Below, piece after piece: positions 6,007 to 56,727 of a stretch of DNA of 64,000 bases. The stretch's first letter is position 1; every line of letters starts with the position of its first letter. This DNA is from a bacterium. Lineage in GTDB: Bacteria > Patescibacteriota > Minisyncoccia > Minisyncoccales > JANBVM01. The translations under genes and the position numbers were made by a program. The DNA lies in assembly GCA_030588745.1 (NCBI GenBank), contig JAUUXB010000002.1:4683-68682 (forward strand), given 5' to 3'. Below the pieces are notes generated by a model. It saw only the letters and a list, made by a program, of their open reading frames with translations, had not been told where the DNA came from and did not search any database.

Positions 6007-6085
6007 ATTCTTTTATTTTAGCAGAAAAATCGTCTTTTTGACGATTTCTCTATACAATTACACCTAATTATATGCAATTTTATCT

Positions 6086-6112
6086 GCTCCGGGAGACGGA
6101 CTCCGTTAGAAC
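6086..6112. other. att-like site GCTCC-N17-AGAAC
   Basis: GCTCCGGGAGACGGACTCCGTTAGAAC; same spacing as the sites at 49585, 50499 and 51063; hairpin AAATCGTC-TTTTT-GACGATTT at about 6027-6047. Confidence 0.7.
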
Positions 6113-6182
6113 CTGCTTAGTGGATTGAAATAAAAAAAGCGACTTGCTTTTAAGTCACTATAAATAATCTTATACCTTCTTA

Positions 6183-8392: not shown

Positions 8393-11064
8393 ATTTTAAT
8401 TAAATCTTTTGTACTTAAAAATATTATTTTCTCATTTTGAAAATCAATTACTACTCTTTTTTCTTTTTCAAAATCTCCAGAAATAATCTTTAAAGACAAT
8501 GGGTCTAAAATCTTTTTTTGAATCACTCTTTTTAATGGCCTGGCTCCTAAATTTGAGTCAAAACCTTTTTGAGCAACAAAGTCCTTAACCGACTCTGTAA
8601 TTTGAACATCAATATCTTTTTTCCCAAGTCTTTGAACAACTTTTTCAAGTTCAAGATTAACAATTTTCTTAATCTCTGGCTTGTTAAGATAATCAAAAAT
8701 TATGATTTCATCAATTCTGTTCAAAAACTCTGGCCTGAAATCATGTTTTAGGGCTGAAAGCACTTTTTCTCTTAAAGATTCTCTTTGCTTTTTTTCCTCA
8801 TCTCCGCCAATAAAACCTAGTGAAGCCTGCCGGGCAATAATATCACTTCCTACATTTGAAGTCATAATCAAAGTTGCATTTTTAAAAGAAGCTACTCTTC
8901 CTTTTGCATCAGTAAGCCGTCCATCTTCTAAAATCTGAAGAAGAATATTAAACACCTCTGGATGAGCTTTTTCAATTTCATCTAATAGTATTACACTATA
9001 CGGCCTTCTCCTTATCTTTTCAGTTAACTGACCGCCTTCATCATAACCAACATAGCCAGGAGGAGAACCTATCATTTTGGAAACAGTGTGTTTTTCCATA
9101 TATTCTGACATATCTAATCTGACCATTGCGTTTTCATCATTGAACAGGAAATTAGCTAAAGCTTTGGCAGTTTCTGTTTTTCCCACTCCAGTAGGCCCTA
9201 AAAACATAAATGAACCCAATGGCCTATTTTCCTCAGAAATTCCAGCCCTTGCCCGTCTAATAGCATTAGAAATTGCAAGAATAGCCTGTTTTTGACCAAT
9301 AACCCGCCTGCTAATAATGTTCTCCATTTTCTCTAGCTTTTTAACTTCTTTTTCAAGCAATCTTGTTAAAGGAATTCCTGTCCACCTTGAAACTACTTTA
9401 ACAATATCTTCTTCTGTTGCCTCGTCCTTTAAAAGAGGGTTTTTTCCCTGAATTCTTACTAATTTTTTCTCAGCACTTTTAAGTTCTTTTAAAAGCTCAG
9501 GGATTTTTCCATATTTTAACTCAGCTACTTTTTGCAAATTAGCTTCAGAAATCCCTTTTTCAGCTTCAAAGCGGGCATTTTCAATTTCTGATTTAATGGT
9601 TTTAATTTTTACAATCAAATCCTTTTCTGTTTTCCATTTAGTTTGAATTGCTCTTTGTCTTTCTGTTAAATCTGAAAGTTGTCTTGAGATTACTTTAAGC
9701 TTAATTTTGATTCCTTTTTCTTTTTTCAGAGCTTCTTGTTTAATTTGTAATTTATTAATTTCTCTTTTTAAATTCTCTAATTTAGAGGGTTCTGATTCAA
9801 TTTCCAATCTTAAAGCACTCATTGCTTCATCCATTAAATCAACTGCTTTGTCAGGCAAAAACCTGTCAGAAATATATCTAGCAGCTAACTGAACACAAGT
9901 GACTAAAGCAGAATCCTTGATTTTTACGCCATGATGAAGCTCATATTTTTCTTTTATTCCTCTTAAAATTAAAATAGTGTCTTCAATTGAAGGCTCTGCC
10001 ACATAAATTGGCTGAAACCTTCGTTCTAATGTCTGATCTTTTTCAATGTATTTCTGATATTCCTTTATGGTTGTAGCTCCAATTGCGCGCAGTTCTCCAC
10101 GAGCCAAAGCTGGCTTTAAAAGATTTGAAGCATCAATTGCACCTTCAGCAGCTCCTGCTCCAACCAATGTATGAAGCTCATCAATGAATAATAAATACTT
10201 GCCATCAGCCCTATTAATTTCTTTTATAAATGCTTTGATCCTGTCTTCAAATTCACCTCTATACCTTGTTCCTGCTATTAAAGCTCCTAAGTCCATTCCT
10301 ATCACCTCTTTATCTTTCAAGCTCTCAGGCACCTGACCCGTAATAATACGTTGGGCTAAGCCCTCAACAATAGCTGTTTTTCCAACACCTGCTTCACCAA
10401 TTAAAACCGGGTTGTTTTTTCTTCTTCGTGAAAGTATCTGCATTAACCTTCTTATTTCATTCTCTCTGCCAACTACTGGGTCGAGTTTGCCCTTTCTGGC
10501 TAAAGAAGTAAGGTTGCGAGCATATTTCTCAATTACCTGATATTTTGTTTCAGGTTTTGGGTCAGTAATTCTATGACCTCCTCTTAGCTTGGCTAGTTCA
10601 GTTGAAAATATCTGGTAATCTAATCTGCCGAACTGCAAAGAACCAACCTCTGTTTTTGGCTTTAAAAAACTGGCTTTATCCAAGATTTCTTTTGCTTTTG
10701 TATCAGCATCCAAAAGACCTAAGAATAAATGCTCAATAGAAATAAATTCATCTCCCATTCTGCTGGCTTCTTTTTTTGCTTTGTCTAAAATCTTTGCCAT
10801 ATCCTGAGTAAGATAAAGCTGGCCCAGGGTCCGAGGGGTAATGATTGTAGGAATCTTGCCCAAACTTAATTCTGTTTTTTTCTTTAATCCTTCAATGTCA
10901 ACACCAAGCCGTTCAAGAACATTTACAATAATACTTTCTGACTGCTTAAGCAAAACATAAAGTAAGTGCAAAGCATCAATCTGCTGCTGCTCTTTTTTTC
11001 TGGCTAATTCCTGGGCAGACATTATTGCCTCTTGGCTTTTATGAGTAAATTGTCCTCCGTTCAT
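8359..11064 (-). CDS. clpB: ATP-dependent chaperone ClpB
   Basis: Clp N domain, two AAA+ modules ([16 protein letters not shown]), long coiled-coil middle domain. Confidence 0.95.
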
Positions 11065-29154: not shown

Positions 29155-29237
29155 GCCGAAGTGGTGAAATGGCAAACACGGTAGATTCAAAATCTACTGC
29201 TCGTAAGGGCTTGTGGGTTCAACTCCCACCTTCGGCA
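29155..29237 (+). tRNA. tRNA-Leu(CAA)
   Basis: GCCGAAG/CTTCGGC acceptor stem, GTAGA-TTCAAAA-TCTAC anticodon arm, long variable arm, GGTTCAACTCC T-arm; CCA not encoded. Confidence 0.95.
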
Positions 29238-47765: not shown

Positions 47766-49028
47766 TTAAAGTTTTAAAATCTTTTTAAATTTCTCTTTAT
47801 TATTAAATGGACCAATTAAAGCTAAGTTTAATTTCTGCGGCTGAAAAATATCTTTAGCAACCTTTAAAATATCGTTTGAGCTAACTTTATCAACTTTCTT
47901 AAAAATTTCTTTTAAGGTTAAAATCTTTCCCTCTAAAAGCTCTTGATTGGCAAAAAATGAAGCCAAAGCATCAGAGGGTTCCAACAGAAGCGCTGTTTTT
48001 CCTTTAACATAGTTCTTTGCTTTTTTTAATTCTGAAGCAGGAACTTTTTGTTTTGAAATTTTCTTGTATTCTTCAAGAACTGCTGAAATTACTGTTTCTA
48101 CTTTTTTATTATCCACTCCAATCTGGGTAAGTAAATAACCAGAATCAGGATTTGCTTCAGAAATAGTGCTGATGTAATAAGCTATACCCAGCTTCTCTCT
48201 TATTTTAACAAATAAACGGGAACTCATCATTCCTCCCAAAATAACAGCTAATAGTTTTTGAGCATATTTTTGAGCATGGAATAAATTATATGCCCTTGTC
48301 CCTAAACATAAATGGGTCTGGTCAGTTTTTCTTGTTTGAATGATTATTTCTGGCTCTGATTGTCTTTCAACAACTGATTGTTTTTTTAATGGCTCATCTT
48401 CTTTTATTCTTGAAAAGTATTTTTTAACCTTTTTAACTGCCAAATTACTGTTTATATTCCCGGCAACACAAACTATTGTATTTGACGCCACATATTGCTT
48501 ATCCATGTAATCAACTAGTTTTTTCCTTGTCATATTGGAAATATTCTCTTTTGTTCCAATAATATCCCAACCAGCAGGCTGGTCGCCATATAAAAGCTTA
48601 GACCATAATACATGAACATAAGTCATTGGGTGATCCAAACGCATATTAATTTCTTCAGTAATTACTCCTTTTTCTTTCTTTATTTCTTTAGAAGGCAAAG
48701 TAGAATTTAAAAAGATATCAGAAACCCAGTCCAGAGCAGTATCAAATTGGGTTGAAACTGTCTTGGCATAATATCCTGTGCACTCTTCTGAAGTAAAAGC
48801 ATTGTAAATTCCACCAATCTTATCCATAGTCTCGGCAATTGCTAATGTAGTTGGTCTTTTTTTTGTTCCTTCAAAATACATGTGTTCTAAAAAATGAGAA
48901 ATCCCATTAATATCTTTTTTCTCATACTTAGAGCCGGTTTTAACTAATACCAATACTGTCACAGCTTCTGTGTTTTTTTGAGGAACAATGATAATCCTTA
49001 AACCATTCTTAAGAGTTGTTTTAAACAT
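47766..49028 (-). CDS. M16 (pitrilysin-family) zinc peptidase
   Basis: HFLEH, NAFTS, GGMMSSRLF...REKLG. Confidence 0.93.
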   Translation of the reverse strand: MFKTTLKNGLRIIIVPQKNTEAVTVLVLVKTGSKYEKKDINGISHFLEHMYFEGTKKRPTTLAIAETMDKIGGIYNAFTSEECTGYYAKTVSTQFDTALDWVSDIFLNSTLPSKEIKKEKGVITEEINMRLDHPMTYVHVLWSKLLYGDQPAGWDIIGTKENISNMTRKKLVDYMDKQYVASNTIVCVAGNINSNLAVKKVKKYFSRIKEDEPLKKQSVVERQSEPEIIIQTRKTDQTHLCLGTRAYNLFHAQKYAQKLLAVILGGMMSSRLFVKIREKLGIAYYISTISEANPDSGYLLTQIGVDNKKVETVISAVLEEYKKISKQKVPASELKKAKNYVKGKTALLLEPSDALASFFANQELLEGKILTLKEIFKKVDKVSSNDILKVAKDIFQPQKLNLALIGPFNNKEKFKKILKL

Positions 49029-49218
49029 AGTTAATATTTATATTTTAGCAAAAAACCGCTCGATTGGCGATTTTTTACTAGCTCCAGTGACAGAACTCTT
49101 CATTTGTTAAAACTATGAATGGGCACAATAAATAGGTGATTGCCACACCATCAAAGCAATCAAAAAGAAAAACACCCATTCTGGGTGATTTCTTTTATTT
49201 GATTTACTGAATTAATTC

Positions 49219-49416
49219 TTAAAGGCGGGTTACGTTTGTTGCGTTAGGACCCTTTGGAGAATCAACTTTTTCGAAAGATACTCTATCACCTACTTTTAAC
49301 TCTTCGTAGGTTACGCCCTTAAGTTCGTTGCTATGAAAGAATAAATCTTTCTCTTCACCATCAACGGTAATAAATCCAAATCCTTTATCTGTAAGATTTT
49401 TAATTGTTCCTTCCAT
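49219..49416 (-). CDS. cold-shock protein
   Basis: KGFGFI RNP1, LFFH RNP2, KGPNATNV; TTGACC-17-TAATAT promoter, ~100-nt 5' UTR, terminator. Confidence 0.95.
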   Translation of the reverse strand: MEGTIKNLTDKGFGFITVDGEEKDLFFHSNELKGVTYEELKVGDRVSFEKVDSPKGPNATNVTRL

Positions 49417-49710
49417 GATTGTGATATAAATTAATTAATGTTTTAAGATTTTATCTCAAAGCTTAGTTCCTTGAATAAGTTCGACTAAATTTTTATCAGG
49501 CAACTATCTTATATGAACAATATTAACATCTAAAAAATAATTGGTCAACCAAAAAACCGCCCAAGAGGCGATTCTTTGAATTTGGCTCCGGGGATGGTAC
49601 AATATTAGAACTTGGTTTATGGAAGGATTTTCTACAGTCAAATCAATTCAATTATCATTTTAAAGTCTAAAAGAATAAAAAAGAGAGAGTTTCCTAAAAG
49701 GTACTCTCTT

Positions 49711-50307
49711 TTATCGGATTTCAGAAAATTCAACTCGTTCGATAGAACTCTCCAGGAAAATAACGCAGGAGATATAATCACTGAGGGCTAAAATAGCTCC
49801 GAAGTTATTTTCTTCAAAAAACCTCTTATGTGATGGAAATCCAAAGTGTTTCATTTTTTCCTCTAGAAACTCTCCTCTACTATTTTTCAACTCTCGCCAT
49901 GTATTTTCTTTGCCTCTTTCATTCCACGAGTTCAATATATCTCTGTGGAATGGATTGTTTGGATCAAAAAGGAAATATCCTCTTCGGAAGTAAAATCGTA
50001 CAATGAAAATCGGCAAATGAGCAAAACTAAAAGTGTTACAGGGGGCAAATAATGCCGTCCAAATACCTGGGTAATTTCCCTTAGTAATCCATTCTTGAGG
50101 AACTCTTCCAAATTGTTTCCACTCTTCTTGCATTTTTTCAAAATGTTCTCGTTCATGAACTCTATGAAAATAACCAACTTGGTTATATTGAGATAACTCA
50201 ATTCTATTTGAAGTGGTTAATAGTTTATAAGTTTCCTTCCACAGCTTACTTCTCCATCTTGTATAATCTTGCTTTAAACCCAACCAATCAATAACCTTTG
50301 ATTCCAT
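49711..50307 (-). CDS. orphan hypothetical protein (cassette cargo)
   Basis: AGGAGG SD favours the ATG at 50307 over 50325; own promoter and terminator. Confidence 0.65.
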   Translation of the reverse strand: MESKVIDWLGLKQDYTRWRSKLWKETYKLLTTSNRIELSQYNQVGYFHRVHEREHFEKMQEEWKQFGRVPQEWITKGNYPGIWTALFAPCNTFSFAHLPIFIVRFYFRRGYFLFDPNNPFHRDILNSWNERGKENTWRELKNSRGEFLEEKMKHFGFPSHKRFFEENNFGAILALSDYISCVIFLESSIERVEFSEIR

Positions 50308-50628
50308 GAGTGATAACCTCCTCATCTAATATAAAGTTGTTAATTTTCTACCCGTTTATCTTACAAGAATTTAACAAAAAATCAACCCCAAACAAAAAAA
50401 ATTGCTAATTTAGCGAAAAGTTCTAGTCCTACTCTGGGTTAAGGAAAAAACCTGCCAAAATAGCAGATTTTTAAATTCAAGTTCTAGCAAAAAGTGGGGC
50501 TCCCCTTATTGGACGCGTTCAGAACCATTGATTGGAGAGAAATTCGGGAAAATCTTAGAGAAATAGAATCTTTATTAGTAAGGAATTAAAATAAAAAATG
50601 GTGCTTTTTTGCACCAATTGACTTTAAT

Positions 50629-50949
50629 TTAATCATACATTTTTTCTAACTCCTTCATATCTTTTTCTGCATAGTCCTTGCCAAGCAGTGTTAGTTTATA
50701 ACCTCTTCCTGTTTCTTCCACTAAACAGTGTCGTATCATATCCACGATCACTTCTTGAACTTCGTCACTGTAATCAGACTGGTATCCAAAATCAATTAAC
50801 TCAAATCTCTCTTTATCTTCCTTTTTCATTTTCTTAACCTCTCTGTGAATATAAAGGGAGTCAAGTTCTCTATTTCTTTCTATAAGTTTCAAAATTATAC
50901 CAGTGAGGAGATTTCTAATTTCCTTAAAAACTGGGGTATAAATTGTCAT
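50629..50949 (-). CDS. small winged-helix-like protein (cassette cargo)
   Basis: YSDEVQEVIVDM...LVEE...YKLTLLGKDY resembles a wHTH; GGAGG SD. Confidence 0.6.
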   Translation of the reverse strand: MTIYTPVFKEIRNLLTGIILKLIERNRELDSLYIHREVKKMKKEDKERFELIDFGYQSDYSDEVQEVIVDMIRHCLVEETGRGYKLTLLGKDYAEKDMKELEKMYD

Positions 50950-51030
50950 TTCTATCCCTCCGATTGATATTATTTTTAAATTTAATTTTCTACCTTGCTT
51001 CTACTCAATCTTTTGAGTTTTGTCAAACTA

Positions 51031-51058
51031 AAAACCCGAGAAACAATCTCGGGCTGAA
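51031..51058. repeat. 28-bp hairpin repeat, copy 1
   Basis: AAAACCCGAGAAACAATCTCGGGCTGAA. Confidence 0.9.
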
Positions 51059-51136
51059 CAGAGCTCCGGGTCTTGGACGATGTTAGAACCTGTTTTGAAA
51101 TAAAAAAAATGGCCGATAGATAAATCATACGGCTTT

Positions 51137-51376
51137 TTAACTTATTATTTTTCCTTCGTTAAGAGCTTTTATCTTCTCGTCCATCTCTTTATTTTGTATT
51201 GCTGTTTGAAATGGAAACAAAGCTTTTTCCATAAACTTCTTTGCTACCATTGCGGTAAGATAGTCGGTTTCTTCTTTGCTGCCGTCAGAACTATCCAAAA
51301 TAATGCTATCTGCAGCACTAACTGCACCTTCAACTATTTTATTTCGTCTATATTCTATTTCTTGCCATTTTTCCAT
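51137..51376 (-). CDS. orphan hypothetical protein, about 79 aa (cassette cargo)
   Basis: AGGAGG SD favours the ATG at 51376 (MEKWQ). Confidence 0.6.
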   Translation of the reverse strand: MEKWQEIEYRRNKIVEGAVSAADSIILDSSDGSKEETDYLTAMVAKKFMEKALFPFQTAIQNKEMDEKIKALNEGKIIS

Positions 51377-51437
51377 TTTAAGGTTCAACCTCCTTTTATT
51401 TAGTAACCTTAGCATGCCAAATTAAATCAAAAAAGTC

Positions 51438-51465
51438 AAAACCCGAGAACCAATCTCGGGCTGAA
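51438..51465. repeat. 28-bp hairpin repeat, copy 2
   Basis: AAAACCCGAGAACCAATCTCGGGCTGAA; 27 of 28 bases identical to 51031-51058. Confidence 0.9.
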
Positions 51466-51610
51466 TTTGCTCCCCTAGTCGGTCTCGAACCTGTGGTTTA
51501 AAGGAAAATTAAGGGGTTTTCCAGGGTATCCCGCAATGCCTCTCGGTCGGGGCTCTTTTAAGCTAAAATGAGACAAATGAGACAGTGCTAAGGGGTATGG
51601 AAATTGTGTC

Positions 51611-52147
51611 TTATTTCTCAATTTCCTTAGCTAACTTTTCAAGCCCGAATCCATTTATTAATTCTATCTCTATGAGACTATCTTTAGCAAAAACTTTTCC
51701 ATCTTCTGTAAATTCACCAGTGGTGACAAAAAATCCTTTTTCGCCTTTTTCTTTGTTAAGATCTTGAATGGAACCAGCAAACTCTCTTACCTCTTTTGGT
51801 AGAACTTGATTTTTTCTTTTGCATTGAATAAAAAATCTTTTTCCATCCTTAAAGGCAATAACATCGATACCCTTATCTCCTGACCCACCAACCACTTTTG
51901 TTTTATATCCTAAACCCTCAAAGATAATGGCGACAATTCTCTCAAATTTTTTATGATTCATTGTTTTCCATTCAATCAATCTTTTGTGTTTCTTAAGCCA
52001 TTTTTCATCAAGCCATTTACTAATATATGACTTGGCTATGGAAATGACTACGGGGGTACTAAGTGCGATAACCCAAAACCACCAAAATGGTTTTATGAAA
52101 GTTATCCAAGGTGTTCTTATTGGTTCCGTATAATCAATGTGGATCAT
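51611..52147 (-). CDS. membrane-anchored Mrr-like restriction endonuclease
   Basis: N-terminal TM; FERIV...GDKGIDVIA...IQCKR...VTTGEFT. Confidence 0.85.
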   Translation of the reverse strand: MIHIDYTEPIRTPWITFIKPFWWFWVIALSTPVVISIAKSYISKWLDEKWLKKHKRLIEWKTMNHKKFERIVAIIFEGLGYKTKVVGGSGDKGIDVIAFKDGKRFFIQCKRKNQVLPKEVREFAGSIQDLNKEKGEKGFFVTTGEFTEDGKVFAKDSLIEIELINGFGLEKLAKEIEK

Positions 52148-52182
52148 TTTTTATTTTCTTAATTTTTTCTTTCATGGATTTT

Positions 52183-53064
52183 TCATTTTCCTATTTCAAT
52201 TTGAGAAGGGTTTTTTAGAATGATTTCCGGCCTGTCTTCATATTCCTTAATTTCACCCTTAATTCTAACTGTTTTTTGAGAATAATAGTCCTCTGGACTC
52301 TGAACAAACTTATATTGGTCTGAACTAAAAATTACACTAACAAAACATTGGTTAGGATATGATTTTTCGAAATTTAAAAAGACTGTATTAGTTTTTGATC
52401 TATAAGTATCAACAATCTTCCCCTCAATAATTATTTCTTTTCCTAAATAATTTCCTGCCTGACAAGCGCCAACAATTTTTAATCCTGTTAATTCAGAAGT
52501 TAATTTTTCCCATCGAAACCCAATCTTTTCATCTTCTTCTATTATTCTCTCGCCCCATTTACAGCCAACTTTATTTTCTATGGCTTCTCTTTCTGCTTGA
52601 GCGATTTCTTCTTTATACTTCACATCTTCTGGAGAGAAACGAGCCACCGCTAATCCTTCTTTAACCAATTCCAGACTAATATTCTGATCGCTAAGAAAAA
52701 CATATCTCAAATATCGACACCATTGATCTTGATCTTCTTTTCCTTTTTCTAATTTTACCTCTTTGTTTAAAATCAACTCTTCTAACGCCTGTTTGGCTTC
52801 TTCATAACAAGGATGTCCTCTTTCATCGGCATCAATTCCTAAAATTCTAACTGAATAACCCCCTTCTATCATAAAAGTATCGCCATCAATAACCTTAGTT
52901 GTTAATTTTAAGGCCATATCGGAAAGCTCAGGAATACTTACACAATTCCCATCTTCACCATTATGGTTTTTCTCTCGATTAGAAATTATTATCGCTCCTC
53001 CAATAATTAAGGCTCCGACAATAATTGCCAAGAATATTCTGTTTTGTTTAAAAAATTCTTTCAT
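52183..53064 (-). CDS. thermonuclease (SNase) with C-terminal OB-fold, membrane-anchored
   Basis: VIDGDT, VRILGIDADE, RYLRYV, LVKEGLA; C-terminal FLNFEK...GEIKEYEDRPEII; start at ATG 53064. Confidence 0.88.
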   Translation of the reverse strand: MKEFFKQNRIFLAIIVGALIIGGAIIISNREKNHNGEDGNCVSIPELSDMALKLTTKVIDGDTFMIEGGYSVRILGIDADERGHPCYEEAKQALEELILNKEVKLEKGKEDQDQWCRYLRYVFLSDQNISLELVKEGLAVARFSPEDVKYKEEIAQAEREAIENKVGCKWGERIIEEDEKIGFRWEKLTSELTGLKIVGACQAGNYLGKEIIIEGKIVDTYRSKTNTVFLNFEKSYPNQCFVSVIFSSDQYKFVQSPEDYYSQKTVRIKGEIKEYEDRPEIILKNPSQIEIGK

Positions 53065-53072
53065 TTTTAACC

Positions 53073-53861
53073 TTATTGATCCCAAATATCTTCTGTGAAA
53101 TTTAAAACTTTTACAATGGGCTTAATCCCTGCTTCCCTTATTATTTCTTTCAATATGGGTTGTTTAGAGATAAAGTTAGCCACTGGAGGACTACTTTTAT
53201 AATAAAATTTCACAAATTTCTTTCCTAAATTAGTTTTTAAAAGAAACGCATCTCTAAAATCTCTTAAAATATCAATTTCTGGAGCTAGCGGAGTTCCATA
53301 TGCGGCAGTGGCAATAAAACAACCTTCTTCGTCTCTGGATTCTGTTTTATATCGAGTATTAGCTTCCGAAGTAGATTCTCTCCAAAAACCCATTCCGAAG
53401 ATTTTTCCAGTATCTGTATCTTTCATAACCAAGAAATAAATTCTATTCCCGTCCTTCATTTTATAATACATAAGTATAGTTCCTAACCTTTCTTCAAGAT
53501 AAGGAGTTCTGCCCTCCACCCCTTCTTTTAATACATTCAACCCCCATATTTCATCTATTAAACTCAATGCAAATTGTGTCGTATTTTGTTCTGTCGGCTC
53601 CAAAAGAGGTTCAAAAGTTGCGCCATATTGACCTGTTTCCTCATTTTTACCTAGATACACATCAGCTAAACCATACCATTTTCCAAGGAATTGAATTTCT
53701 TCACTAACAGAAGAAGCGAAAACAGTCTCTTGTGACTTTATAGTGAATCCAGTTTGAGTTTTCAATCTGAAATCATTTAAGATGAGAATTATTAACAAAA
53801 CTAGCACAAAAATAATGCTTCCAAAAATTATTTTCCTATTTTTCTTAATTTTCTCTTTCAT
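53073..53861 (-). CDS. membrane protein with CFI-box-CTERM domain
   Basis: GCFIATAAYG...LRDFRD...FYYKSSPPVA. Confidence 0.85.
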   Translation of the reverse strand: MKEKIKKNRKIIFGSIIFVLVLLIILILNDFRLKTQTGFTIKSQETVFASSVSEEIQFLGKWYGLADVYLGKNEETGQYGATFEPLLEPTEQNTTQFALSLIDEIWGLNVLKEGVEGRTPYLEERLGTILMYYKMKDGNRIYFLVMKDTDTGKIFGMGFWRESTSEANTRYKTESRDEEGCFIATAAYGTPLAPEIDILRDFRDAFLLKTNLGKKFVKFYYKSSPPVANFISKQPILKEIIREAGIKPIVKVLNFTEDIWDQ

Positions 53862-53865
53862 AGAT

Positions 53866-54717
53866 TTATCCCGCTTTCTCTCTTAGCCCCTCGATCATAT
53901 ACTTTAAGATAAGACCAGAAAACGGCTCTTCATATTTTCTATCATCTATAGTAACAGTTAACTTTGCTAATTTTTCAGACCATATAAAATATTGCGTCTT
54001 TTGTTTTCTTTCTCTTCTTAACGCTATCCCATCACTGTATGAGTCTATAGAAATAATCTTGTCCAAATTCACGCTTAATGTCCTTTTTTGCCCAGTAAAA
54101 ACAATTCTTTTGTTCGTAAGGGTAAACATACCTTTGTCTATAACTCTTATTTCTTCGCGGGATTCACTTTTTGAACCAAAAGCCCCAACTCTAAAATAGA
54201 CTCCTTTTGCCACCCTAAAACTTGGACCACCATAACCACCACTACTTACTCTTACCGAACGTGGTTCTTTTAATGAAATATTTGGAAGTACACATCTAAG
54301 TTCTTCGTCCTTTTTTAAAAGGATAGGTGATGGTATCCCTATAAACTTTATAGGCGCTTTTCCTTCTCTTATTGCATTCATCCATTCTTCCATATCTGCT
54401 TCCTTTTGTTTAACATCTGACATTCCGCCATTGGCTATATTTTTCCATTCTCTCGCGGTTAAAGTCTGGTTTCTGTATTCCTGCCAAATTAGACTAGATG
54501 CGTCTTGAACTTTAGAAAGCTTATGCTTTTCTCCACGTCTAGCAAAGATTGCATCACATTTATTACACTCAAAACTCTTAATGGTTAGTAAGCCAAATAT
54601 CTTCTTCCTGATGGTTTCTATTAGTTGTCCAGACTTGCATACGGGGCACTTTGTAAGCCAAGAGGTTCCAATAGGATTACCATGGTCATTTAATGTTTTC
54701 TTAATTTTTTCTTCCAT
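53866..54717 (-). CDS. zinc-ribbon plus PH-like domain protein
   Basis: CPVC/CNKC; GGPSFRVAKGV; DKGMFTLTNKRIVF; likely start at ATG 54717. Confidence 0.7.
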   Translation of the reverse strand: MEEKIKKTLNDHGNPIGTSWLTKCPVCKSGQLIETIRKKIFGLLTIKSFECNKCDAIFARRGEKHKLSKVQDASSLIWQEYRNQTLTAREWKNIANGGMSDVKQKEADMEEWMNAIREGKAPIKFIGIPSPILLKKDEELRCVLPNISLKEPRSVRVSSGGYGGPSFRVAKGVYFRVGAFGSKSESREEIRVIDKGMFTLTNKRIVFTGQKRTLSVNLDKIISIDSYSDGIALRRERKQKTQYFIWSEKLAKLTVTIDDRKYEEPFSGLILKYMIEGLREKAG

Positions 54718-54721
54718 AGAT

Positions 54722-54952
54722 TTATTCATTAACACCATTTTTTCTTAGACACATTTTATAATAAACCTCGTAATCATCGAGCTTAAATTTACCTTCGGCA
54801 CAAGTAGTACATTTTTCAATAGCTTTTTCTACTGCTATATTATGACAATTAGAATAAATTTGTGATGGTCTTATCTAACACCAATAAAAAGCACCACCAA
54901 CGATTAAGATAATAATTGCTATCCACCAATATTCCTTAATTTTTTCTTTCAT
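54722..54952 (-). pseudogene. small membrane-anchored Cys-rich protein with an in-frame TAG at codon 26
   Basis: MKEKIKEYWWIAIIILIVGGAFYWC*IRPSQIYSNC...YYKMCLRKNGVNE; TAG at 54875-54877. Confidence 0.75.
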
Positions 54953-54972
54953 AGAGCTTTATGAAGTGCTTC

Positions 54973-55188
54973 TCAGTCAGAAGCCCCCTCTCTTATTTGT
55001 ATGACACAGGTTTGAATACAAGCACTTTTGTCGCTACTGCAATACTCATCACAACCGCACCTTCTTTTACATCTTTCGATAGGATCACCTGTGTATTTAT
55101 ACCAAATCAAATAACCAACAGTGATTGTTAGTGATAATAAAGATAAGGTAATAAGAATAAGGCAAATTATTTTGATTTTTTCTTTCAT
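54973..55188 (-). CDS. small membrane-anchored Cys-rich protein
   Basis: MKEKIK + TM + CKRRCGC...C...C...C. Confidence 0.75.
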   Translation of the reverse strand: MKEKIKIICLILITLSLLSLTITVGYLIWYKYTGDPIERCKRRCGCDEYCSSDKSACIQTCVIQIREGASD

Positions 55189-55326
55189 AGTGTTTCTTTA
55201 TCTTCAAAATAACCTTATTTAAAACAAAATTCAAGCCAAAATTAAAAACCCGATAAAGTCGGGTTGATAATGCTTCTCGGTCGCTCGAACCGAGCACTAG
55301 CCTGCTCCGGCGATAGGACTCGAACT

Positions 55327-56727
55327 TTAACGCTCAATTTTCTCTTTTAAAAATTCAACTAGCTCTTTGATTTTTATCCTAACTTGTTTTGTTGTATCCC
55401 TATCTCTAATAGTAACATCATTTTGCTTTAAAGAATCGTAATCAATGGTAATACAGTATGGAGTTCCTATTTCATCTTGAGAATAATAACGTTTACCAAT
55501 ATTACCTCTGTCATCCCAGGCAGTAGAAAATTCAGGCTTTAATATCTCATAAACTTGTTTGGCTTTCTTAACTAATTCTGGTTTGTTAGCCAACAAAGGA
55601 AATACTGCTGCTTTATAAGGCGCTAAATAAGGTTTTAATTTTAAAACGATGCGTTCTTCTTTTTTTCCTTTCTCTTCAGAATAAGCATCCAACAAGACTG
55701 TTAAAAAAGACCTGTCCATTCCAAATGTTGGCTCTACAACGTGAGGAATGAATTTTTCTCCTGTTTCTTTGTCTGTGTAACGTAAATCAACTCCTGATTT
55801 TTCCATATGGTTTTTTAAATCAAAATCAGTTCTATAAGCCAGCCCATAAAGTTCTTTAAAGCTTCCGAAAGGAAAACTATATTCTAAATCTTCTGTTTTT
55901 TTGGAATAATGAGACCTTTCTTCATCTGTGTGCTCCCGCCATCTTAGATTGTTTTTATTTACACCCAATATTTCAGTAGTCCATGTCCACATTTCTTTTT
56001 TCCAGTAATCAAATAATTTTTCCCATTTCTGTTTTTTAGGATTAAAGAAATATTCAAACTCAGAAAGATTAAACTGAAGAGTGCGGAAAATAAAATTACC
56101 TAGACTAATTTCATTTCTAAAAGCAGGGCCTGATTGAGCCAAGCCAAAAGGAAGGCCGGGCGATAAAGAATCTAGAACATTTTTAAAATTAACAAACATG
56201 CCTTGAGCAATTTCTCCTCTTAAATAAGCTAAAGACTTATTCTCAGGAACAATACCAATATGGGTTTCAAACAAAAGATTGAATTTTCTTGGTTTGGTCC
56301 AATCAAAAGCCCCGCAAGACGAACAAACAAGTTTTTCTTTATCAATAATGTTTTTAATTTCTTCAACATCGAAACCTTCAACTTTTATCTCATTTCCTTT
56401 TTTCTCAAAATGGTCTTCAATTAAGTGATCAGCTCTAATTCTGCTTTTGCATTTCTTACAATCAACTAAAATATCTGTAAAACTATTAGTATGACCTGAG
56501 GCCTCCCATACTCTAGGACTCATAATAACTCCTGAATCAAGTCCATAAATATCTTCTCTATTATTAACAAAATGTTTCCACCAAAGATTTTTAATGTTAT
56601 GTAAGAGTTCAACACCCAAAGGCCCATAATCATAAGTATTTGCTAAACCACCATATATCTCAGAGCCTGGAAAAACAAAACCTCGTCTTTTCGCTAATGA
56701 TGTAATTTTTGCCATTTTATCAGCCAT
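55327..56727 (-). CDS. glyQS: glycine--tRNA ligase (alpha2 type)
   Basis: IYGG, DYGPLG, LRGEIAQG, FRNEI, EPTFGMDR, IGKRY. Confidence 0.95.
   Translation of the reverse strand: MADKMAKITSLAKRRGFVFPGSEIYGGLANTYDYGPLGVELLHNIKNLWWKHFVNNREDIYGLDSGVIMSPRVWEASGHTNSFTDILVDCKKCKSRIRADHLIEDHFEKKGNEIKVEGFDVEEIKNIIDKEKLVCSSCGAFDWTKPRKFNLLFETHIGIVPENKSLAYLRGEIAQGMFVNFKNVLDSLSPGLPFGLAQSGPAFRNEISLGNFIFRTLQFNLSEFEYFFNPKKQKWEKLFDYWKKEMWTWTTEILGVNKNNLRWREHTDEERSHYSKKTEDLEYSFPFGSFKELYGLAYRTDFDLKNHMEKSGVDLRYTDKETGEKFIPHVVEPTFGMDRSFLTVLLDAYSEEKGKKEERIVLKLKPYLAPYKAAVFPLLANKPELVKKAKQVYEILKPEFSTAWDDRGNIGKRYYSQDEIGTPYCITIDYDSLKQNDVTIRDRDTTKQVRIKIKELVEFLKEKIER

Follow-up and report, generated by a model that had tools for sequence, protein, structure and literature searches.

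Orphan recombinase tails in a Patescibacteria genome as probable scars of serine-recombinase insertion at tRNA genes

Four short sites in the 64,000-nt stretch analyzed here (the window; positions 4683-68682 of contig C2 of G000, a 626-kb Patescibacteriota genome in 30 contigs) share the motif GCTCC-N15-TYAGAAC and can be read as the C-terminal tail of a large serine recombinase (LSR). It is very probable, in our judgment, that they are attL-type scars of small mobile elements that inserted, by means of an LSR, at the 3' tips of tRNA genes. The encoded tail is homologous to LSR C-termini, one junction can carry either of two types of tail, and the crossover falls within GCTCC. The flanks of the sites resemble sequence downstream from tRNA genes, and the interval between an M16 peptidase gene and glyS is hypervariable within the genus.

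A shared motif that reads as a protein tail

All four exact matches to the motif are on the plus strand, where 0.01 would be expected in the window, and none of 100 shuffles gave four. The whole genome has seven exact matches, compared with one to the pattern reversed as a control, as well as some 15 looser copies that all lie in stop-to-stop frames of no more than 53 aa. The four probable scars in the window are as follows:

6086..6128, plus strand: scar 1, GCTCC core and attP-type right arm with a displaced LSR tail, LRETDSVRTCLVD, closed by TGA at 6126-6128
49585..49663, plus strand: scar 2, GCTCC core and right arm, tail LRGWYNIRTWFMEGFSTVKSIQLSF, stop at 49661-49663
50499..50589, plus strand: scar 3, of the long-tail class, GCTCC core and right arm, tail LPLLDAFRTIDWREIRENLREIESLLVRN, stop at 50587-50589
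51063..51123, plus strand: scar 4, GCTCC core and right arm, tail LRVLDDVRTCFEIKKMADR, stop at 51121-51123

The tails listed are the translations from CTC. The original prediction, made from the window alone, had described these peptides as sharing a register, lacking a start codon, and ending at a nearby stop, and all four copies agree with it exactly: there is no start codon at the common left edge, each tail is closed by a near stop, and each lies within a stop-to-stop frame of 21-33 aa. The tails fall into classes. Sites 6086 and 51063 carry a short one (LRxLD[DE]VRTC[FL]...), site 50499 a long one (LPLLDAFRT[IV]DWxxIRExLxxL...), and site 49585 a tail of the form LRGWYNIRTWF; a fourth class (LGLxDDFRTLxW...) is located just outside the window. 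Homology among the copies starts sharply at G|CTCC, and the sequences upstream are unrelated (column entropy of ~1.8 bits). The initial 34 nt of scar 2 are the same as in a copy on contig C18 of this genome, and the initial 33 nt the same as in a copy in the relative G008. Every copy lies between genes of the opposite strand, with terminator-like hairpins of the same strand as these genes on either side.

The copies vary as a coding sequence would. Across 66 nt of 23 long-tail copies, the differences at codon positions one, two, and three number 1846, 1319, and 2207, and the synonymous fraction is 0.289 in the predicted frame versus 0.208 and 0.111 in the other two, a value reached by only 1 of 500 column shuffles. 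Stops number four in this frame versus 24 and 46 in the others, and the per-column profile shows the same codon-like pattern. The codon-position bias on which the original prediction had staked its reading is thus present.

Recombinase genes that end in tRNA genes

The parent family was found with a profile of 21 long tails, searched against 1.84 billion representative proteins. It gave 116 matches at E ≤ 1e-3, 111 of them to proteins of at most 113 aa, which are spurious small open reading frames (ORFs) called over such sites. Among the 14 matches that were read individually, P0029, P0113, P0114, and part of P0077 have an LSR C-terminal region (...EKRQLLNFLLQN..GKKL.F.L..PF...) upstream of the tail. 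A search with P0114 among longer proteins recovered 18, of 487-571 aa, and 17 of these carry the domains PF00239, PF07508, and PF13408 (resolvase, recombinase, and zinc ribbon; the remaining one has only the first two). Judged by domain content, they are ordinary LSRs. Three of the 18 (P0118, P0119, and P0134) end in a DxxRT-type tail, at least six (P0123, P0124, P0125, P0128, P0130, and P0133) in an antisense-tRNA tail of the form L[RP]xxDSN, and five in a stop right after L-R/P-x. The long-tail class of site 50499 is borne by the intact LSRs P0118, P0119, and L128. That a recombinase family should carry such tails had been the central claim of the original prediction, and with DxxRT tails on P0118, P0119, P0134, and L128 it holds.

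So does its suggestion that the alternative tail overlaps antisense tRNA genes in Patescibacteria LSRs. Scanning species-representative genomes with the LSR alignment and the G000 copy (see below) yielded 438 relatives, of which we examined the best 80 loci, nearly all labeled as Patescibacteria or their kin. An LSR ORF is present in 77 of these and complete within the locus in 70; three of the 70 are short or broken, which leaves 67 usable genes. Fifty of the 67 end in, or read through, an antisense tRNA gene called by ARAGORN (35 tRNA-Asn, nine tRNA-His, three tRNA-Gln, two tRNA-Asp, and one tRNA-Leu). Another seven show an antisense T-loop or DSN where no tRNA is called, three have a DxxRT tail (L128, L153, and L161), and seven end otherwise. 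More distant LSRs in the relatives behave likewise at 13 of 20 loci, with tRNAs for Gly, Ile, Leu, Pro, Arg, Asp, and others. A search of IMG/VR with the LSR alignment returned 23 mostly distant loci, five of which read into an antisense tRNA; three more, all with one protein (L187-L189), have an LLCNIRT... tail and no tRNA nearby, which fits a free attP and is too thin to count.

The exchange of tails is clearest at L128 and L129, LSR genes that lie on one contig, 9.3 kb apart and in the same orientation. Their DNA is identical through ...CCAGCCATGCTCCC and diverges just after GCTCCC. L129, which adjoins a tRNA-Asn gene, runs on as AGGGCTGGACTCGAACC, the antisense tRNA (LPGLDSNQ...), and L128 runs on as CTTGCTGGACGCGTTCAGAAC, encoding the DAFRT tail LPLLDAFRTVEW.... 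Tandem insertion would give just this arrangement, the inner enzyme reading into the tRNA and the outer one into the right arm of the next element. Because L128 and L129 diverge at this point, and because scar homology has its sharp left edge there, we place the crossover inside GCTCC(C). At one junction, then, the attP arm alternates with the host arm (B') across a shared crossover, both in L128/L129 and on contig C20 of G000, where the LSR/tRNA-His junction and a scar at 9089 have ACCCAA in common.

The recombinase was said in the original prediction to be missing, and this is correct for the window only: searching with P0119 at E ≤ 1e-5 found no LSR gene there and a single match in the rest of the genome, at C20:1195-2703 (59% identical). 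The reading frame of this copy ends with ...KCSDLGG and a stop inside the antisense tRNA-His gene. A scar on the same strand 7.9 kb away (C20:9089) has TTGGGT in common with it, in the same frame, and runs on as GLIRDAFRTIDW..., followed by a terminator on the tRNA-sense strand. A second, inverted copy of the site was seen neither in this C20 element nor on the minus strand of the window. The tRNA-like part of this scar shares ACGGGA with tRNA-His and does not share the acceptor bases, which indicates a mimic carried by the element rather than a displaced tRNA end. The relative G008 retains the order tRNA-Lys, tRNA-His, HtrA, tRNA-Arg, and the distance from tRNA-His to HtrA is ~0.4 kb there (with one small gene and one scar) versus 8.8 kb in G000.

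The geometry of the half-sites points the same way. Numbered with the G of GCTCC as nt 1, all four window sites have their GAAC beginning at nt 24; in antisense tRNA-Asn, antisense tRNA-His, and 35 tRNA-Asn ends (read by eye) it begins at nt 19. The integrase of the Listeria phage LI offers a parallel, as its zinc-ribbon-domain motif is described, in the passages of PMC3783163 on its sites, as lying 5 bp nearer the center in attB than in attP. The 5-nt offset is consistent with an attP-type arm in the sites and an attB-type arm in the tRNA; GAAC would then be the zinc-ribbon motif, and any assignment of bases to the domains that touch them is likewise putative. The head of the site, GCTCCGG, is the antisense 3' tip of tRNA-Asn (G000 C23: GCTCCGGCGGTAGGACTCGAACC).

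A course of events that would produce these arrangements begins with an LSR gene at the edge of its element, reading outward across its own attP. The right arm of attP (P') would encode the last 12-35 residues of the enzyme, from L-[RP]-x-x-D-x-x-R-T onward. Integration would join the body of the gene to the antisense tRNA, whereupon the tail would become L[RP]xxDSN... or be cut off by an early stop, and would strand the P' arm and with it the orphan codons of the tail at the element's far end, beside tRNA-downstream sequence and usually a terminator. Repeated insertion at one tRNA would push older scars outward while old recombinase genes are lost, and the end state would be a same-strand array of scars with cargo genes between them. 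The order of these events, the way in which the recombinase genes were lost, and the present status of the scars as substrates are what we infer. The original prediction had the window sites as attP right arms supplying the last codons of a recombinase. The homology of the tails to LSR C-termini bears out the codons, and the sites are not intact attP: the right arm is joined to a left flank that resembles tRNA-downstream sequence, which makes them attL-type.

Conservation of the long tail at the protein level extends past the ~27-nt DNA arm, which makes the accompanying conjecture of a directionality switch attractive. The tail would be present only in the free element, or when the gene reads into the arm of another element, and would be replaced upon insertion; it could therefore be a state sensor that biases integration or excision without a directionality factor, and the scar arrays could be a cassette platform, served in trans, that builds hypervariable islands. 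We would not give this proposal much credence.

Arrays of probable scars and the hypervariable interval

A profile of 12 tails, searched in six frames of G000 and 40 relatives, has a match at E ≤ 1 in 22 of the 41 genomes and a best match at E ≤ 1e-3 in 12; none of the matches at E ≤ 1e-3 lies within an open frame of more than 97 aa. (A word-index search with the 41-aa frame around a divergent tail, P0001, gave no match.) The matches cluster on one strand, with about 12 at 653-670 kb of G008, seven at 41-49 kb of G002, six on contig C32 of G034, and five on contig C3 of G038. In G008, each site comes after an opposite-strand gene. A TnpB/OrfB_IS605 gene is found just past the end of this array (L045:10612-11853). 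The array of G007 (plus strand) terminates at a tRNA-Gln gene (minus strand), the scars on C5 of G003 (minus strand) come after a tRNA-Asn gene (plus strand), and the G002 scars share their strand with an LSR whose frame enters a tRNA-Asn gene at 28 kb. Within G000, scars are found downstream from tRNA-Gln (C26), tRNA-Asp (C21), tRNA-Asn (C23), and tRNA-His (C20). Decay is visible, in the form of early stops in two of 24 long tails, lost heads in the copies at C20:8445 and C18:42899, and an internal deletion at 49081 of the window, and this fits at least some of the scars being inert.

The window contains three related pieces beyond the four sites (49081-49097, 51469-51491, and 55304-55326), the last two of which have tRNA-type spacing. 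They are listed here with the other features of the array:

6013..6085, plus strand: flank to the left of scar 1, matching in reverse complement the module after the tRNA-Asp gene on G000 C21 (z 26.8)
49081..49097, plus strand: probable degenerate scar GCTCCAGTGACAGAACT with an internal deletion, tRNA-terminator-like hairpin upstream
49085..55268, minus strand: hypervariable interval from the M16 peptidase gene to glyS, all cargo genes antisense to the scars
51469..51491, plus strand: fragment GCTCCCCTAGTCGGTCTCGAACC with tRNA-type (attB-type) spacing, no tRNA called at this spot
55272..55326, plus strand: antisense tRNA-Asn end and downstream flank, fused to the glyS stop codon

A repeat of ~110 nt that follows GCTCCCCTAGTCGGTCTCGAACC (window 51469-51600) recurs many times in G001, G002, G007, and G008.

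Left flanks were compared by local alignment with the downstream flanks of tRNA genes, six of which were tried. The genome has at least three copies of the module that precedes scar 1, an AT-rich box with a terminator hairpin: one in the window (6013-6085) and two on C21 (16175-17500). Of the C21 copies, the first directly follows the tRNA-Asp gene and the second lies 1.2 kb further along, behind two scars; the recurrence indicates that tRNA-downstream modules travel with inserted units. The piece at 55272-55326 comprises the antisense last 22 nt of tRNA-Asn and its native downstream hairpin (z 17.9); it is the "xDSN" form of the original prediction, and the same fusion to the glyS stop is found in G001. 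The left flank of site 51063 resembles the tRNA-His downstream flank of G008 (z 12), and its hairpin recurs upstream of scars in G001, G002, and G008. The flank of 49585 is like the tRNA-Asn downstream terminator (z 7.6) and that of 49081 like the one of tRNA-Asp (z 8.4-8.8). The two terminators at each site are thereby explained, since one belongs to the cargo gene and the other to the tRNA-downstream module. A 3' fragment of tRNA-Asn with its native flank also lies ~75 nt after the tRNA-Gln gene of G007, on the same strand (L063), and hence attachment-region fragments of one tRNA can land next to another.

The sites themselves do not qualify as tRNA genes or pseudogenes. ARAGORN makes no call at any of them (the sole tRNA called in the window is a tRNA-Leu at 29155), a permissive Rfam scan of 48900-55400 gave no tRNA match, and neither ARAGORN nor the Rfam tRNA model finds a cloverleaf at the sites.

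In G008 the M16 peptidase gene and glyS are neighbors; in four other genomes the gap between them measures ~1.8 kb (G003), 3.2 kb (G001), 6.2 kb (G000), and 25.6 kb (G002). Units between the window scars are single genes of 0.4-1.5 kb, and the cargo consists of a cold-shock protein (cspA), two nucleases (one Mrr-like and one SNase-like), and several proteins with no family assignment. The Mrr-like nuclease (Pfam Mrr_cat, E 5e-27; PADLOC PDC-S02 and ZorD-like nuclease domain) stands beside the SNase-like protein at 51611-53085, and the pair may be defense cargo. Three stretches at the starts of cargo genes share the N-terminal codons MKEKIKK... (52148-52183, 54696-54730, and 54930-54952), and the shared DNA recurs in relatives. 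The cspA gene and its upstream region (49186-49564) are 93%-94% identical to copies in the G007 and G008 arrays, whereas neighboring core genes are only 73%-75% identical. We did not score this as transfer of a cassette, since conservation of a cold-shock gene and its leader could be enough to account for the identity.

Metagenome contigs from four runs, mapped on 47800-55400, peak in depth at the edges of the scars and have loose ends there (49586, 50499, 51063, 49618, 51095, and 55308), and some join a tRNA-Asn flank and GCTCC to a DAFRT-type arm. These joints have sides of only 21-34 nt and are likely to come from other organisms or repeats; they cannot show excision.

Competing explanations and known systems

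Several observations count against insertion scars at tRNA genes. There is no intact tRNA beside the window array, only the 22-nt tRNA-Asn fragment fused to glyS; nothing tRNA-like occurs near site 6086; and the flank of 50499 matches none of the six tRNA flanks tried. The short tail of sites 6086 and 51063 is found on few LSRs (L153 and the end of P0077), and the LRGWYNIRT tail of 49585 on no LSR seen. No LSR gene or remnant lies between the window scars, and scars far exceed LSRs elsewhere (11 profile matches to one LSR in G000, 18 to none in G008, and 10 to none in G007). The G008 array contains housekeeping genes (e.g., YceG, a sigma factor, and Ham1). Finally, recombination was not directly observed; the contig joints have short sides and may be repeat artifacts. 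The excess of scars, together with units that lack an LSR, means that simple tandem accretion would need repeated clean loss of the recombinase or some other mobility. The route would be one of frequent clean recombinase loss, LSR-less units moved in trans, or excision between non-cognate scars.

The second of these routes leads to the most serious competitor, that the sites are active, integron-like cassette sites and the recombinase-less one-gene units are moved in trans by an LSR encoded elsewhere. It would account for the same-strand arrays, whose units hold a single gene each, always antisense to the sites, and for the number of scars relative to LSRs. Both in G008 and on C21 of G000, the unit next after the tRNA gene lacks an LSR and comes with a terminator-like flank of its own, the same flank hairpins occur upstream of scars in four genomes, and the 33-34 nt scar stretch is identical across genera whose core genes are 73% identical. 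Against it, no conserved left half-site exists upstream of GCTCC, where column entropy is ~1.8 bits; the truncated and early-stop copies described above also speak against active sites, and no excision product was seen. Moreover, recombination of attL with attL without a directionality factor is not known for large serine integrases, as far as the relevant portions of PMC3783163 and PMC5499577 go. We consider active cassettes possible and on balance doubtful.

That the sites are displaced 3'-end fragments of tRNA genes, the signature of tyrosine-integrase islands, is very unlikely, judging from the site sequences (no search was aimed at a tyrosine integrase). Their first 7-16 nt do mimic the antisense 3' end of tRNA-Asn or tRNA-His, and true tRNA-Asn fragments exist at 55304 of the window and in G007. 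Past about nt 16, however, the sites depart from any tRNA, with five extra nucleotides before GAAC, and the acceptor-like part of the scars at C20:9089 and in G008 is not complementary to the 5' strand of the tRNA-His found there.

The two terminator-like hairpins on the gene-sense strand and a T-loop-like GGTTCTAAC could also suggest that the sites work as RNA, either as a 3'-UTR element or small RNA framed by the terminators or as a processing signal of tRNA-like form. This we hold to be highly improbable: Rfam finds no family at the gathering threshold and only chance-level matches at E ≤ 10, ARAGORN is silent at the sites, conservation is codon-like on the opposite strand, the identical sequence forms the in-frame end of LSR genes, and the second terminator is accounted for by the tRNA-downstream module. 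No tmRNA was called in the genome. Genes for small proteins of 13-35 aa are scarcely tenable despite the open frames, the codon-biased variation, and an in-frame TTG, GTG, or ATG near some copies, because neither a start codon nor a ribosome-binding site is conserved, homology is abrupt at GCTCC with unrelated sequence upstream, predicted public ORFs over the sites vary in length and N-terminus, and descent from LSR genes accounts for the codon bias.

REP/RAYT elements, IS200/IS605 ends, and dif/Xer sites were set aside on their anatomy, which is unlike that of the sites, with no search made; the same applies to template repeats of diversity-generating retroelements, group I/II intron boundaries, and tmRNA-like tagging. 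Integron attC sites were dropped once the tails proved to be LSR gene ends. The attC consensus is RYYYAAC ... GTTRRRY, bracketing an imperfect palindrome. The copies, as read, have a single AGAAC box with no complementary partner nearby, and the would-be core GTT is not conserved (GTT, ATT, or TTC). The arrays do resemble those of integrons in being on the same strand, in having a gene and a site per unit, in forming a hypervariable chromosomal region, and in having more sites than recombinases. They differ in lacking the inverted-repeat architecture, in that the sites are antisense to the genes, and in that the associated enzyme is a serine recombinase (no search was aimed at IntI). Similarly, Islander-type islands lie beside tRNA genes with a short tRNA-like repeat on the far side, as here, but the far-side repeat in this case is a mimicking attP arm, readable as a recombinase tail, and not a copy of the tRNA end.

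The LSRs themselves share the domain set of the A118/LI, phiC31, Bxb1, and SPbeta integrases (PF00239, PF07508, and PF13408), as well as the invariant A-R-V-S motif near the N-terminus and the short sites of large serine integrases, and their attP-type outer motif would lie 5 nt further from the center than the attB-type one, as in the pertinent text on LI integrase (PMC3783163). They differ from those integrases in that attP sits within the gene's own 3' end and in that tRNA 3' tips serve as targets. A 2014 reference work knew of no serine-family integrase that uses tRNA genes (PMC4383910), and the word "tRNA" is absent from a preprint on large-scale LSR discovery. Our literature search found no description of Patescibacteria serine recombinases that read through attP into tRNA genes.

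The closest analogies are among tyrosine recombinases. Phage Mx8 carries attP within the coding region of its integrase gene, which gains a different 3' end upon integration, with a change in the properties of the enzyme (IntP to IntX), according to the account excerpted from PMC6070905. The LSR genes described here likewise extend across attP and have their ends changed by integration; the Mx8 enzyme is of another fold and chemistry and comes from a single phage, whereas the trait occurs here in the serine family and in 50 of the 67 genes examined. As is proposed here, SSV has tRNA genes as its integration target. Archaeal SSV-type integrases have the site inside the recombinase gene and leave an orphan gene piece at the other end of the element, and gene-disrupting recombinases are called exclusive to archaea in the section of the review that treats them (PMC8371274). 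The elements here are bacterial, and only the last 12-35 residues, past the conserved domains, would be swapped, whereas the SSV gene is split into N- and C-terminal halves and inactivated. The resemblance to Mx8 and SSV is one of working principle, and the elements are not members of those families, being of the serine and not the tyrosine type.

Read as insertion scars, the sites explain odd "orphan peptide" repeats of ultra-small bacterial genomes as a readable record of insertion. Each scar would keep the tail of its recombinase, so the history of insertion at tRNA hotspots would stay legible after the enzyme itself is lost, and the window contributes the recombinase-less side of this picture, arrays of orphan tails that mark old insertions. 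The reading would add tRNA genes to the targets of serine integrases and provide a serine-recombinase counterpart to the Mx8 and SSV designs. It would also supply enzymes with short attP/attB pairs that are fully predictable from genomes, and these enzymes are natural candidates for relating tail exchange to directionality.

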